Shown piece by piece: positions 5,615-12,916 of a stretch of DNA of 55,284 nt. A program made the translations under genes and the position numbers. A model generated the notes under the pieces. It was not told the origin of the DNA and did no database searches. It saw nothing but the letters and a program-made list of their open reading frames with translations. Location: contig CANPIU010000004.1 in NCBI GenBank assembly GCA_947574235.1, positions 1 to 55,284 on the forward strand, in the 5' to 3' direction. The stretch comes from an uncultured Clostridium sp. (GTDB taxonomy: Bacteria > Bacillota > Clostridia > TANB77 > CAG-508). Position 1 is the stretch's first letter. Every line of letters begins with the position of its first letter.

Positions 5615-5818
5615 ATGAGAAACAAAGGAGAAAGAGGCTCAGCTACTTTATTAGTTGTTGGAAGTTGCATGGTTATTATTGCTGTGATGGTAGCTTTTAT
5701 GATGAATATGGAGAATAAAAAACAAGCACAAGAAAAAGAAATCGATAGAATTACCAAAAGTTATGAACAGAATGAGCAAGATATGGAAAGAGCCTATACA
5801 GGGGATTTGGAAAAATAA
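5615..5818 (+). CDS. Small membrane protein with a PilX-N/ComGG-like N-terminus
   Basis: 67 aa. ERGSATLLVVGSCMVIIAVMV resembles the (E/Q)RGSxL hydrophobic N-terminus of minor pseudopilins. Abuts murI and the first pilin-like gene. Confidence 0.45.
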   Translation: MRNKGERGSATLLVVGSCMVIIAVMVAFMMNMENKKQAQEKEIDRITKSYEQNEQDMERAYTGDLEK

Positions 5819-5839
5819 TTAATGAAAAGAGGGATAAAA

Positions 5840-7162
5840 ATGAAACACAAAAATAATCAAAATGGAATTACGTTAATTGTAGTAATAATATTAATCGTTG
5901 CATTATTAATACTAGTAGGAGTAGGAATAACAATCTTGATAAAAAAGAATGGAATGCAAACTAAAGTGAATGATGCCAAAACACAAGAAATAGCAGGCTC
6001 AGAAAGAGAGAAAAAAGAGGTAAAAACCAAAAAAAGAGAATTGGAATATTGGGAAATTACAACTGTAAAGGACAAGGAATGGTATAGCTACCAAAAAGAT
6101 AAAATAGAAGGACCAAAATTAAAAGGAGAAATGGTTCCAATCAAATATATAGGAGAAAGCCAAGAAGGAAATAAATGGGCCAATAGTATGACAGCAGATG
6201 GTAGTATGTTTGTATGGATACCAAGATATGCCTATAAAATAACAGAAGGATATCATAGTGAAGATGAAGGAACAATAGAAGTAGCATTTATAAGTACAGA
6301 AAATAATTTTTTAAATGACGAAACAGGAGAAATTACAACAAATCCAAGCGAAGAAGGAGCAGGAACAACAAAATGGTTAGTACATCCAGCTTTTACATCA
6401 AATGCGAGCAATGGAGGAGGCTTTGGAGAATTAGAGGGATTGTGGATAGGAAAATTTAAGGCAACGGGAACCGAGACAAATTTAAGTGTACAACCAGGAG
6501 AAAAAATCCTATGCAATATGACAATCAATGCTCAATATCAACTGGCAAAAGAAAGTACTTTCGGAGAAAATGAAAGTATCAATAGTCATATGGCAAAAAA
6601 TAGTGAATGGGGAGCAATTGTGTATTTAGGACATAGTAAATATGGAACCAATGGAAAAAAGATAGAAAATAATGAGAGCGAGAGTGAGGATTTTTACACG
6701 GGAGGAAGCAATAATAAAAAGACTATATATACTACAAATAAGTTACAAAGTACAACTCATAATGCGACAGGAGTATATGATTTGTATGGAGGAGCATGGG
6801 AATATGTGGCATCATATGTTGATAATGGTGGCAAAAAATTAAGTGAGAATGGTGGAACTAAAAGAGGCGATTTATATGGAGAGACAAAAGAAGAAAGAAT
6901 GACGAGCACAGCTTATAAAATGGTATATGATGGAATAAATGATGATTATTATAAAGATTATGAGGACGCTAAAAAATATAAAGGAGATGCTGTGTATGAG
7001 ACTTCTGCTGTAGTGCATCCAAGTGCATCATGGTTTGGGGAACGAGCTTTGTTTCCTAATTCAGTAGGTCCATTTTTTAACCGCACAGGTGCTTTTGCTT
7101 TTCTTAGTTACTATGGTTATAATCATAAGGCGGGTTCATTCCGCCCAGTATTAGCATTTTAA
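5840..7162 (+). CDS. Pilin-leader-like protein with a C-terminal FGE-sulfatase-like (C-type lectin fold) domain, divergent paralog 1
   Basis: ORF 5822..7162; ATG 5840 has the AGAGGG RBS. N-terminus is NQNG/ITLIVVIILIVALLIL. C-terminal motifs: WIPRYAYK, HPAF, LWIGKFKAT, NSEWGAIVYL, GVYDLYGGAWEYVA, SFRPVLAF. Confidence 0.65.
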   Translation: MKHKNNQNGITLIVVIILIVALLILVGVGITILIKKNGMQTKVNDAKTQEIAGSEREKKEVKTKKRELEYWEITTVKDKEWYSYQKDKIEGPKLKGEMVPIKYIGESQEGNKWANSMTADGSMFVWIPRYAYKITEGYHSEDEGTIEVAFISTENNFLNDETGEITTNPSEEGAGTTKWLVHPAFTSNASNGGGFGELEGLWIGKFKATGTETNLSVQPGEKILCNMTINAQYQLAKESTFGENESINSHMAKNSEWGAIVYLGHSKYGTNGKKIENNESESEDFYTGGSNNKKTIYTTNKLQSTTHNATGVYDLYGGAWEYVASYVDNGGKKLSENGGTKRGDLYGETKEERMTSTAYKMVYDGINDDYYKDYEDAKKYKGDAVYETSAVVHPSASWFGERALFPNSVGPFFNRTGAFAFLSYYGYNHKAGSFRPVLAF

Positions 7163-7271
7163 AATAGTTGTTCAACAATAAGAGGGACTTTTTGTTTTGC
7201 GTGGGCGAGGAGACTATCATAAAAGAGTTGTAATTTTTGGTTATTACCATATTTTAACAACTCTTTTTTTA

Positions 7272-7700
7272 TTACAAGTATTTTTTCAATTGTTCTACAG
7301 TATCTTCTTGAAATTGAACGAATTCAGTTAAAATATTTTTAACAGGTTCATCTGTAGTTGGATTGTGGTTTAAAAGTTTAACACCTTTAATAATACCCAT
7401 GTTAGTTCCTTGTAGCATCATTTCTGCAATTTTAGAAGTACTTTTGTCATCCATCGTATTGAATTCTACACTCATCCATCCCATTGCTTTTTGCATAGGA
7501 TTTAATTCTTTAGGAAAATCATCATAATTTGTTAATTGGGTATTCACCTTATTTAAAATATCGTTATATTTATCGTATTGAAATTTTAAATCCTTTTTGA
7601 AGTTGTCATCTTGTACTTTTTCAGAAACATTAGAAATAGAATCCATTCCCATTTTAATTCCTTTGTTGATTTCATTTAAAATATAGCCTGGACTATCCAT
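7272..7700 (-). CDS. Hypothetical helical protein (possibly a ferritin-like four-helix bundle)
   Basis: ORF 7272..7772. ATG at 7700 is preceded by a GGAGGTATAAAT RBS. No confident family assignment. Confidence 0.55.
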   Translation of the reverse strand: MDSPGYILNEINKGIKMGMDSISNVSEKVQDDNFKKDLKFQYDKYNDILNKVNTQLTNYDDFPKELNPMQKAMGWMSVEFNTMDDKSTSKIAEMMLQGTNMGIIKGVKLLNHNPTTDEPVKNILTEFVQFQEDTVEQLKKYL

Positions 7701-11150: not shown

Positions 11151-11219
11151 GGCTAAATATGAAATTTAGGAATAAAATTTTTGTAAAAGTAGAAACTAAA
11201 GAAAAATGGAGGAAAACAG

Positions 11220-12809
11220 ATGAACAAGCAAAGAGGAATTACATTAATTGCATTAGTAATTACCATTATTGTATTATTGATTTTAGCGGGAATAAGCATT
11301 GTTAGTTTAACGGGAGAAAATGGGATACTAGGTAAAGCACAAACAGCAGGAGAAAAAACAAAGGAAGAAAGAGCCAAAGAAAAAGTACAAGTAGCCGTGA
11401 TGGGAAGTTATGGAGAAGATGGAAAACTTAATAATAGTGAATTAAAAATGAACTTAGACAAAGTAGAAGGTATTGATAAAGCTACTATACCACCAGAAAT
11501 AACAGAAGATAGTTTTGACCTTATTATAAGAGTTGACGGTTATCATGTAGTAATTAAGAAAAATGGCGAAGTAATTATAGAAGAAGCACCAATCATATCT
11601 GATAAACCAACTACAGGAGGAAAATGGGATGGAGAGGTAAATAGTCCCAAATTAACACAAGATATGACAGCCGTATATTGGAAAGAAGATGGAACAGAAG
11701 TAATAGGAGATACAGGAGAAAATTGGTATAACTATAAAGCAGGAGATAATCAAAGAGATACAAAGAATAGTAAATGGGCAAATGCAAAGACAGAAGATGG
11801 AAGTTATTGGGTGTGGATACCAAGATATGAATATAAAATCTTAAGTGGAGAAGGAACAAGTACAGCAGGAAAAATAGATGTGAAATTTATACCAACAAGC
11901 CAGACAACACCAGATGAAGGCTATAAAATTCATCCAGCTTTTACAGATGGAACAAGTAACAACTTTAAAAATGGAGAATGGGATAGTGAGCTTGCTGGAA
12001 TATGGGTAGCTAAATATGAAGCAAGTAGAAGTGATGCAACTATAAATTCACTAGGAAATAGTAATAATATGAAAGTAGTGCCTAATGTACGCAGTTGGAC
12101 AAACATCACAGTAGGAGATAGTTACACAGTGGCTATGAATTATGATAGATCAAAAGAGAGCCACTTGATGAAAAATAGTGAATGGGGAGCGGTAGCTTAT
12201 TTAACGCAAAGCCAATATGGAAGAAATGGACATGAAATAGATATTAATAATAGTAGTACATGTGTAACTGGAAATGGAGGAGGAAGTACAAGTGCATCGC
12301 AAGCATCGGGAGTGACGAATGCTTATAACACAGAAACGGGAGCAAGTGCAAGTAGTACAGGAAATATGTCTGGAATTTATGATTTATCAGGAGGAGCATG
12401 GGACTATGTAGCAGCTTTTATTAGTAATGGACATACCAACTTGTCCTCTTATGGAGGAAAACTAGTAGAAGGAAAAACAGGAGTAAATCCAACAGGATAT
12501 ACAAATTTGAGTAGTAAATATGCAACGGTGTATCCATATAATTCTTCAAGTGATACAAATGTTAATAACTATACAAGTTATAAAAATGCTGGATATGGAT
12601 ATGGAGATGCTATTTTAGAGACTTCTGTGAGCGGGATCAATAGTACAAGCTGGCACGGGGACTATTCTTACTTTCCTCACACGAGCACTCCGTTCTTCTT
12701 ATGTGGAGGATATTACTACAGTGGAGCCGGTGCGGGTATCTTCTCTTTCGGCCGTACCAATGGCAGTGCCGGTTTCGACTATTCGTTCCGTCCAGTACTA
12801 GCATTTTAA
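11220..12809 (+). CDS. Pilin-leader-like / FGE-sulfatase-like domain protein, tandem paralog 4
   Basis: Same architecture. The 3' end (about 12650-12800) is locally GC-rich and A-poor and encodes LCGGYYYSGAGAGIFSFGRTNGSAGFDYSFRPVLAF. Confidence 0.7.
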   Translation: MNKQRGITLIALVITIIVLLILAGISIVSLTGENGILGKAQTAGEKTKEERAKEKVQVAVMGSYGEDGKLNNSELKMNLDKVEGIDKATIPPEITEDSFDLIIRVDGYHVVIKKNGEVIIEEAPIISDKPTTGGKWDGEVNSPKLTQDMTAVYWKEDGTEVIGDTGENWYNYKAGDNQRDTKNSKWANAKTEDGSYWVWIPRYEYKILSGEGTSTAGKIDVKFIPTSQTTPDEGYKIHPAFTDGTSNNFKNGEWDSELAGIWVAKYEASRSDATINSLGNSNNMKVVPNVRSWTNITVGDSYTVAMNYDRSKESHLMKNSEWGAVAYLTQSQYGRNGHEIDINNSSTCVTGNGGGSTSASQASGVTNAYNTETGASASSTGNMSGIYDLSGGAWDYVAAFISNGHTNLSSYGGKLVEGKTGVNPTGYTNLSSKYATVYPYNSSSDTNVNNYTSYKNAGYGYGDAILETSVSGINSTSWHGDYSYFPHTSTPFFLCGGYYYSGAGAGIFSFGRTNGSAGFDYSFRPVLAF

Positions 12810-12872
12810 TGTTCGAAGAGGGATAAGATAAGTTTAAATGGAGAGTAAAGAATATTTGAACCAATGTAAAAC

Positions 12873-12916
12873 GTCAAAAATTGCGAGAAGAGAGATTGCA
12901 ATTTTTGACATTTTTT
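12873..12916 (+). terminator. Rho-independent terminator after the pilin-like array
   Basis: Perfect 12-bp stem: gtcaaaaattgc (12873-12884) pairs with gcaatttttgac (12898-12909), followed by attttttaa. Confidence 0.75.

Follow-up and report, generated by a model that had tools for sequence, protein, structure and literature searches.

What does a gut bacterium gain from an array of related genes, three of which are nearly the same in their 5' parts and far apart at their 3' ends? The question is raised by a stretch of 55,284 nucleotides from the genome of an uncultured gut Clostridium sp. (contig CANPIU010000004.1 of assembly GCA_947574235.1), called here the 55 kb window, which is the part of that Clostridia genome covered by our analysis. 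Between a glutamate-racemase-like gene (murI, 4849-5613, Asp_Glu_race 1e-15) and the hrcA-grpE-dnaK genes (hrcA at 13027-14046, HrcA 6e-55), the window carries four paralogs, P1 to P4, a 67-aa open reading frame (ORF) and a minus-strand 141-aa ORF; the four paralogs lie where a first-pass annotation, made from the letters of the sequence, had placed them. We consider it likely, if some way short of certain, that P1-P4 are surface-anchored binders with a lectin fold, that they belong to a family targeted by diversity-generating retroelements (DGRs), that the array evolves in concert, and that P4 varies in the DGR manner.

The family to which these genes belong is, as judged from its sequences, a DGR-target family whose members are DGR variable proteins, a connection that the first-pass annotation had missed. 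In relatives from other genomes (given here by locus number), the last ~150 nt of the family gene, the variable region (VR), are repeated just downstream as a template repeat (TR), with the mismatches falling on the adenines of the repeat: all of them in L010 (17/17), L041 (26/26) and L069 (15/15), and most of them in L055 (27/32) and L063 (25/30). Such an adenine-mismatch repeat was found in at least five relatives, three of which also have a reverse transcriptase (RT) and Avd alongside. In some of the relatives' loci, the cassette adjoining the family member comprises an RT (phrog_1423 5e-118, RVT_1 3e-17), Avd (phrog_3206, “Avd protein of DGR”, 2e-28) and a protein with MutS domain I (MutS_I 1.7e-14), and in L041 (10169-14083) the order is target, TR, RT, Avd and MutS-like (MSL) gene; an MSL-containing layout of this kind has been described as architecture D (PMC5758913). 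Another family gene on the same 250 kb contig (CAKNIZ010000001.1; L080, ~10900-11010) has 15 of its 16 mismatches to the L041 template at adenines and is a second, non-adjacent target of the L041 retroelement, remote targets more than 100 kb away being known (PMC5758913). Finally, five viral contigs (L081-L085, of which L082-L085 are from IMG/VR) carry an Avd-RT cassette beside a CLec (C-type-lectin) domain that is related to P2 residues 160-525 and lacks the leader found in the window proteins. From the TR/VR pairs and RT/Avd cassettes of the relatives, taken with the Avd-RT cassettes of the viral contigs, it follows that the DGR-target family is shared by cells and phages, the CLec binding domain being common to phage and cellular DGR targets.

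That domain is predicted to adopt a CLec fold of the FGE (formylglycine-generating-enzyme) subtype. The structure of P2 was predicted with AlphaFold2 from 40 homologs, and the model reached a predicted local distance difference test score (pLDDT) of 88.8 and a predicted template-modelling score (pTM) of 0.76. It shows two helices (residues 4-31 and 36-61), a small alpha/beta module with a linker after it near residue 125, and, from ~140 to 526, a large domain. When the model was compared with the PDB using Foldseek, the top match by far was TaqVP (5vf4), the DGR variable protein of Thermus aquaticus (E 5e-11, prob 1.0). FGEs also matched (6muj, E 2.4e-3; 5nyy, 3.4e-3; 2q17, 1e-2; human FGE, 5e-2), as did Mtd, the Bordetella phage tropism determinant (E 5e-3), with EgtB and PorK lower. 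Profile searches gave fainter signals: Pfam FGE-sulfatase (PF03781) scored P1 at 22.8 bits (E 8e-5) against a cut-off of 23.3, did not match P2-P4 and matched 10/40 relatives at E<0.01, while a PDB sequence search with P2 and a PHROG search with the 67-aa ORF, P1, P2 and the minus-strand ORF returned no match, and an NCBIfam scan returned noise only. The first-pass proposal of an FGE/CLec fold, with the profile and structure-prediction checks suggested for it now carried out, is thereby upheld, since similarity to both TaqVP and FGEs is what the comparison revealed.

In TaqVP, TvpA and Mtd, which share the FGE-subtype CLec fold, the variable region lies at the extreme C-terminus and is exposed as the ligand site (PMC6328139). 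The divergent last part of the window proteins, supposed at first pass to face a ligand, coincides with the DGR variable region of their relatives. Cysteine is absent from the invariant and near-invariant columns of 40 family members, and in the window it occurs at position 231 of P1, at 484 of P2, at 348 and 495 of P4 and nowhere in P3, the single residues of P1 and P2 being non-equivalent. Because no cysteine is conserved, the catalytic pair that forms the copper site of FGEs is absent, and we read these proteins as binders, not FGE enzymes; the enzymatic module that had been entertained at first pass is accordingly not borne out.

Within the window, the C-termini of P1-P4 align with the variable regions of five relatives and keep the scaffold PFF-RGG-G-(V/I)F-F-G-SFR-VL. 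Alignment with four VR/TR pairs showed variation among P2-P4 in every one of the 25 codon columns that are DGR-mutable in relatives, as opposed to 7 of the 23 other columns (Fisher p 1e-7). The template adenines used in the window tests were taken from the template repeats of other genomes, so that what follows for P4 is suggestive, not proof. Its variable-region equivalent (last 150 nt, 12657..12806, + strand) has a GC content of 50% in a window of 33% GC, and mismatches these templates at a rate of 0.60-0.64 at template-A sites and 0.29-0.40 at other sites, with L010 and L041 as the templates that give the lowest non-A values (0.29-0.31); the non-A rate of true variable regions from other genomes against this set of templates is 0.22-0.46. 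The corresponding rates for P2 (last 150 nt, 9314..9463, + strand, GC 0.43), aligned to the relatives' VR/TR pairs, are 0.60-0.64 and 0.43-0.46; those for P1 (GC of the last 150 nt 0.41) are 0.55-0.71 and 0.49-0.53; and those for P3 (last 150 nt, 10998..11147, + strand, GC 0.37), aligned in the same way, are 0.50-0.53 and 0.48-0.54. The 3' end of P4 hence looks like a true variable region, that of P2 is intermediate in template likeness, and that of P3 is without adenine bias.

Comparison across strains, another check suggested at first pass, was informative on the same point. The closest database protein (P0002) sits on a syntenic contig, L090, of a ~93%-identical relative in which the order is murI, the 67-aa ORF, the P1 ortholog, the minus-strand ORF, one family gene, hrcA and grpE; the one copy there, where the window has three in tandem, reflects either a deletion or an assembly collapse. 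P1 differs from its L090 ortholog at ~6 of 440 residues (~99% conserved), with only two substitutions in the last 40 residues. Along most of its length the single L090 family gene shares 88-93% identity with P4, and the changes are mostly at third positions. Over the last 50 codons identity falls to 65-74%, and the changes are mainly at first and second codon positions, often at both, with the third kept in many codons. Within the final ~125 nt, the differences that separate P4 from this ortholog fall at 25 of 40 template-A sites versus 11 of 85 others (odds ratio 11, p 3e-8), whereas in the control comparison of P2 with its ortholog in an 84-85%-identical relative, L092, differences fall at 3 of 40 template-A sites and 10 of 85 others, without an A-site excess, the variable-region equivalent of P2 being conserved there. 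The 3' end of P4 therefore varies between strains in a manner that is suggestive, though not proof, of DGR-type variation. Since its GC-rich variable region differs from the L090 ortholog almost only at template-adenine positions, P4 may well be, or have been, a remote DGR target.

How the array as a whole came about can be approached from its repeat structure. P2-P4 form a three-copy tandem repeat with a period of 1666-1675 nt, in agreement with the triplication of ~1.67 kb seen at first pass, and P1 shares ~39-40% identity with them. Along the tandem unit nucleotide identity is 90-100% over 7900-8690, 70-90% over 8690-9240 and 45-65% in the last ~225 nt. Of the earlier description, near-identity over ~270 codons followed by sharp divergence, the 5' identity and the divergent 3' end hold, but the copies diverge by degrees from about codon 269 onwards, and to an extreme extent only in the last ~75 codons. 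Following dN/dS along the gene, as had also been recommended, we obtained synonymous divergence (dS, Nei-Gojobori) among P2-P4 of 0.04-0.21 for codons 46-268, 0.29-0.65 for codons 269-455 and 2.6 to saturated for the last 77 codons, in which omega (dN/dS) is ~0.15. In their 5' part the copies have tracts of 175-247 nt in common without a single difference. Pairwise these measure 247 nt (8424-8670 = 10099-10345), 239 nt (8069-8307 = 9735-9973) and 230 nt (8369-8598 = 11712-11941), and a 175-nt tract on the + strand (8424..8598 = 10099-10273 = 11767-11941) is identical in all three copies, as a footprint of gene conversion would be.

Because low 5' dS and identical tracts coexist with saturated 3' dS, the data indicate that P2-P4 have old 3' ends and 5' parts homogenised by gene conversion. 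The concerted evolution of the 5' parts proposed at first pass is thus supported; the word “recent” attached to the triplication is not, given the saturated 3' dS and a tandem array also present in L092. In that relative a second family gene begins right after the P2-like gene, from which we deduce that the tandem arrangement is older than the split between the two lineages. A recent triplication followed by positive selection was considered as well, and is ruled out by the saturated 3' dS and the omega of ~0.15 at the same place. Arrays in other genomes (L009, L023, L033 and L052) display the same pattern of a conserved 5' part and a divergent 3' part.

The other half of the question concerns the way in which these proteins reach the surface. 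In the window copies the leader reads M(D/N)KQ(K/R)G followed, after the glycine, by ITLIALVITIIVLLILAG; in the family it reads K/R-G followed by ITL(I/V)ALV(I/V)TI(I/V)VLLILAG and then (T)GENGI, and is nearly invariant among proteins that are otherwise 40-50% identical. Across 40 family members G6 is near-invariant and I7, T8 and L9 are invariant, with leader lengths of 5-45 residues. A short basic segment ending in glycine and followed by ~20 hydrophobic residues is what a class III signal looks like, and the pilin-like leader recognised at first pass gains further support from the comparison of a leader-segment profile with the PDB, where 13 of 13 matches were type IV pilins or archaellins (best E 0.006). 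The Pfam N_methyl profile (PF07963) scored P2, P3 and P4 at 19.1, 19.9 and 20.0 bits against a cut-off of 21.2, did not match P1, and matched 19/40 family members at E<0.01. Type IV pilins carry glutamate at mature position 5. The window proteins have alanine there in P2-P4, as is near-invariant in the family, and valine in P1. For residues 1-138 modelled separately with AlphaFold2 (pLDDT 72.6; helices 3-31 and 36-61 plus three short strands), Foldseek found nothing in the PDB at E<=0.001, the best E being 1.4, and no pilin, which for a model of moderate confidence is a weak negative; a pilin fold for this module is not supported.

No machinery for a pilus was encountered near any of these genes. 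The first-pass statement that no pilus ATPase, platform protein or prepilin peptidase lies nearby agrees with the absence of T2SSE, T2SSF and Peptidase_A24 among the scanned window ORFs (nearly all plus-strand ORFs of at least 100 aa, and three minus-strand ones). In 80 related loci no pilus gene was a conserved neighbour, and motif scans for the T2SSE Walker A and the peptidase A24 GGGDxKL motif gave no true match; nor did pilus genes adjoin two short leader-only proteins (P0234 and P0184). A search with the leader-only profile had at least 6,718 matches. In a literature search, neither the leader motif strings nor a combination of DGR and prepilin could be found.

Several observations bear on the cargo of this leader. 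The same GITL(I/V)ALV...LILAG...GENGI sequence opens proteins unrelated to the CLec family, namely a glycoside hydrolase family 5 (GH5) cellulase with DUF285, an RCC1-repeat protein and proteins of 135-184 aa without a Pfam match (leader on other cargo at L021 11568-13568, L070 6658-9306, L008 3282-3689 and L004 10434-10988). In L086 (10001-11241), the start of a 305-aa gene is overlapped by the leader-only protein of 110 aa that precedes it, and split or truncated genes, not small pilins, may account for many of the short “leader” proteins (60-110 aa) known from databases. In L043, both a 372-aa protein (8002-9120, minus strand) and a CLec family member (9686-11239, plus strand) open with “NEKGSITLFVLLAILFF”. 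This TadE/PilX-like anchor is homologous to the 67-aa ORF of the window (orf67), which leads us to conclude that the family uses two types of pilin-like leader. We read the leader first described as a lineage-wide export or anchor signal of the prepilin type, going by its sequence; display on a pilus is possible but unsupported.

Family members are almost never named in databases, and they are numerous. A word-indexed protein search gave at least 7,937 matches, and a profile search of 1.84 billion representatives of 50%-identity clusters gave 24,593 with E<=1e-10, of which 2,684 reached E<=1e-30; several copies of the CLec domain are contained in some of the proteins. Up to 5-7 CLec-domain stretches per chain were seen in giant metagenomic proteins (P0244, 4340 aa; P0247, 3713 aa; P0288, 4516 aa). 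Relatives are encoded in at least 590 stretches of GTDB species genomes; without exception the 80 best loci belong to metagenome-assembled genomes of uncultured gut Clostridia, “Clostridium sp.”, Oscillospiraceae or Bacilli, and genomes with relatives are often multi-copy, some being only ~1.5 Mb in size. When the 1,186 ORFs of these 80 loci and the window were clustered, no neighbour was common to more than 6 loci.

A number of results weigh against the account favoured here. Neither RT, Avd nor a MutS-like gene was found in the 55 kb window by Pfam scans or by tblastn with the RT, Avd and MSL proteins of L069; a sensitive blastn of the four 3' ends detected no template repeat in it, the paralogs matching one another alone; and the syntenic L090 contig is likewise without template repeat, RT or Avd. 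P2, P3 and P4 cannot all come from one template, a single-template DGR origin for the three being ruled out by third-codon-position differences, an indel and the 45-65% identity of their last ~225 nt. Two assemblies that are 99.9% identical share identical variable regions, with no sign of ongoing hypermutation at that scale, and dN/dS in the variable region of P4 and its L090 ortholog is 0.36, not above 1. Since the template adenines lie in ligand-contact codons, ordinary diversifying selection could also have produced the A-site enrichment. Moreover, surface exposure, leader processing, ligand and fold rest on prediction. Much of this is what one would expect if no DGR had ever acted on the array, its genes being ordinary duplicated adhesins with loops diverged by point mutation under diversifying selection and the rest homogenised by gene conversion; the differences of the 3' ends at synonymous sites, the stability of the P1 and P2 variable regions across relatives and the 3' end of P3, which bears no template-like signal, would all fit. 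We nevertheless find such a history rather doubtful in view of the 50% GC of the P4 variable region in a genome of 33% GC, of non-adenine positions as near to the relatives' templates as those of true variable regions elsewhere, and of differences from L090 that are concentrated at template-A sites and in many codons change first and second positions together while keeping the third; in addition, close family members are proven DGR targets, remote targets among them. Quite another origin, as receptor-binding (tail fibre) genes of a prophage, is brought to mind by the CLec domains beside Avd-RT cassettes on the five viral contigs, yet it is scarcely credible for genes that lie among housekeeping neighbours in a synteny kept in relatives, of which P1 and P2 have no PHROG match, and whose N-terminal leader region is missing from the viral matches.

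The remaining alternatives accept the architecture and differ over what it is for. Membrane-tethered, active FGE-type enzymes, performing formylglycine generation or a related copper or iron oxidase chemistry, might be surmised from the weak PF03781 matches of P1 and ten relatives and from the structural likeness to FGE and EgtB; with the cysteines missing or misplaced as described above, a non-enzymatic DGR variable protein as the best structural match and no sulfatase gene among the window ORFs scanned by Pfam, we regard this as very improbable. The possibility that the proteins are modular minor type IV pilins has more substance. They would then be cleaved after the leader glycine by a prepilin peptidase and built into a type IV filament or pseudopilus, probably at its tip owing to the missing Glu5, so as to show their lectin-like module in the way of PilB and PilC of S. 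sanguinis. This would account for the class III form of the signal (basic leader of variable length, near-invariant glycine at -1, ~20 hydrophobic residues), for the N_methyl matches in about half of the members examined and the exclusively pilin and archaellin matches of the leader profile, for the extreme conservation of the helix, which suggests a specific partner, and for the second, TadE/PilX-like leader on orf67 and on the CLec protein of L043; a catalogue of modular pilins, too, lists the same domain combination (PMC8179133). Against it stand the near-invariant alanine in place of Glu5 and the N_methyl scores under the Pfam cut-off in every window copy, the failure of the N-terminal module to match a pilin, and the lack of a type IV pilus ATPase, platform or peptidase gene in the window, as a conserved neighbour in the 80 loci or beside short leader-bearing proteins. 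The leader's occurrence on a GH5 cellulase and an RCC1-repeat protein fits a general export or anchor signal better than a filament subunit, and on balance we think the pilin interpretation improbable.

Under the reading of the locus as an array of surface-anchored binders of the DGR-target family, the proteins would work as follows. The short basic leader ending in glycine is followed by the highly conserved hydrophobic helix, prepilin-like except for alanine in place of Glu5, which would hold the protein in, or target it to, the membrane with the remainder outside. Helix and small alpha/beta spacer would lead to a ~390-residue domain of predicted FGE-subtype CLec fold that, lacking catalytic cysteines, would bind a putative ligand without catalysis. 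The binding surface would be formed by the last ~50 residues (PFFxRGG...G(V/I)F...SFRxVL), the very segment that in relatives is the variable region rewritten by DGRs. In the window, diversity of the binding site would be carried mainly by germline paralogs, gene conversion keeping the 5' two-thirds of the three tandem copies alike while their 3' variable-region equivalents have, it seems, diverged anciently at exactly the DGR-mutable positions. P1 and P2 would represent frozen specificities, and P4 would be, or recently have been, reached as a remote target by a DGR in another part of the genome.

This proposal can be set beside several known systems. The window proteins share their predicted fold with TaqVP (Thermus aquaticus), TvpA (Treponema denticola), Mtd (Bordetella phage BPP-1) and LdtA (Legionella), and DGR variable proteins likewise have the variable segment at the extreme C-terminus, on a scaffold of the form ...RGG...G(V/I)F...(S/G)FR.V; close relatives of the window genes have the TR/VR pairs, RT, Avd and MutS-like gene of architecture D (PMC5758913), and the family has remote targets, as in Treponema. 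Unlike those systems, the window is without a DGR, three of its four copies look frozen, and its genes stand in a tandem array whose constant part evolves in concert. The anchor also differs, being a pilin-like helix here as opposed to a lipoprotein signal in TvpA and LdtA (PMC5758913) or a phage tail. Surveys report a transmembrane segment or signal peptide at the N-terminus of most cellular DGR targets (PMC8144416), and a “G-type pilin” domain is rare among the DGR targets of one survey (PMC11661182). Modular type IV pilins, such as S. sanguinis PilB with a von Willebrand factor A (vWA) module and PilC with a lectin module, combine the same class III-like signal with a grafted binding module; the window proteins depart from them in having alanine for Glu5, no pilin-fold match, no linked pilus genes and a leader that is also used on enzymes. 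The first-pass remark that no function had been described for such a fusion stands as regards function; the N_methyl plus SUMF/FGE architecture itself (IPR012902-IPR005532) had already been catalogued, with 8 proteins among modular pilins and without a stated function (PMC8179133, Dataset S1).

A functional analogy, and no more than that, is offered by the Sulfolobus sugar-binding proteins of the bindosome, where the proteins that a prepilin-type signal brings to the cell surface are binding proteins and not subunits of a filament (PMC3047682). The leader described here apparently serves likewise, heading CLec binders as well as a GH5 cellulase and an RCC1-repeat protein, although it is a bacterial, Clostridia-specific motif for which no assembly system or peptidase was found here. 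With FGE (PF03781), finally, the window proteins share the FGE-subtype CLec fold, the motif pattern and weak Pfam matches, and they differ from it in the missing conserved cysteine pair, in the sub-cut-off scores of the window copies and in the hypervariable C-terminal region.

All four paralogs and orf67 are encoded on the + strand. The array is preceded by orf67 (5615..5818, 67 aa), a small membrane protein whose TadE/PilX-like N-terminus, “ERGSATLLVV”, agrees with the PilX-N-like gene noted here at first pass, the family matches being sub-threshold (Tad E 0.049, TadE-like E 0.032). It is kept as a 67-aa gene in L090 and is homologous to the N-terminal anchor of the CLec family member at L043 9686-11239. 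P1 (5822..7162, 446 aa), a frozen copy, consists of the leader, a short linker and the CLec/FGE-fold domain; its true start is probably Met7 at 5840, and its L090 ortholog begins MKHK. P2 (7886..9466, 526 aa) has the leader at residues 1-26, the small alpha/beta module at ~36-121, a linker and the CLec/FGE-fold domain at ~140-526, with a frozen variable-region equivalent. P3 (9552..11150, 532 aa) has the same architecture and a fully diverged 3' end, in which one codon is extra and the C-terminus is changed to SFRAVLMIEM. P4 (11220..12809, 529 aa), again of that architecture, is the copy that appears to have a DGR-type variable region. A promoter-like site 5' of P2 (TTGACA-17-TATGAT, 7766..7794, + strand, 11/12 matches) is a consensus match alone, the regional total of such sites not exceeding that of shuffled controls.

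The 3'-terminal block of the genes, TC(G/A)TTCCG(C/T)CCAGTA(C/T)TAG(C/T)ATTTTA(A/G) (+ strand; 12783..12809 in P4, 7136-7162 in P1 and 9440-9466 in P2), deserves mention. These 27 nt (TCRTTCCGYCCAGTAYTAGYATTTTAR) are nearly identical in P1, P2 and P4 despite the ~40% overall identity of P1 and the change-saturated adjoining sequence, and are lost in P3; they could be an element like the initiation-of-mutagenic-homing (IMH) site, the DGR homing site, or a recombination anchor. Exact-pattern scans for this block and for the inferred template pattern gave 0 matches in metagenome_contigs and viral_contigs. The minus-strand gene between P1 and P2 (7272..7697, 141 aa) encodes a helical protein outside the paralog family with a weak, below-cut-off likeness to DUF2383 (Pfam E 3e-4), and its PHROG search was empty and its PDB search without a significant match. 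In L090, the 93%-identical relative, the sequence of this protein is the same throughout (100%), and it is hence far better conserved than its neighbours. Farther along, the window holds a second surface-display system, of the cohesin-dockerin type (19528-26139), made up of a sortase (19528-20130), a cohesin-domain protein (20204-20866) and a 1748-aa protein (20893-26139) with a dockerin and many Ig-like surface domains. The acetyl-CoA carboxylase alpha subunit (51435-52242) seems to be in two pieces: an ORF of 135 aa covers only positions 49-171 of the 310-position ACCA profile and overlaps the 162-aa ORF that follows (51754-52242), which may reflect a frameshift or a sequencing error.

Taken together, we argue that the main value of this locus lies in the size of an uncharacterised family, in the leader that its members share and in the coexistence of frozen and DGR-like copies. 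To our knowledge, DGR variable proteins are the sole prokaryotic counterpart of antibody-like targeted diversification, and we know of hardly any cellular ones for which ligands and mode of display have been established. Here a very large unnamed family, amounting to thousands of 50%-identity clusters from uncultured gut Clostridia, joins a DGR-type lectin-fold binder to a pilin-like leader, and the analysis points to a conserved, undescribed leader motif on diverse exported proteins of these bacteria. By way of speculation, and as a tentative idea that we would not expect to hold in full, the GITLIAL-type leader, class III-like with its Ala5, might act across the lineage of small-genome gut Clostridia as a sorting signal, directing DGR binders, cellulases and other cargo to a dedicated surface-display or pseudopilus system comparable to the bindosome of archaea; the array would then serve as an archive in which P4 is open to the DGR and P1-P3 are frozen, with constant parts interchangeable by gene conversion. 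The family has two routes to diversity of its binding site, namely rewriting by a retroelement and germline paralog arrays with concerted evolution, and both may be at work in one array. The locus thus provides a concrete system in which to ask how DGR targets reach Gram-positive surfaces and whether duplication fixes the variants that DGRs make.

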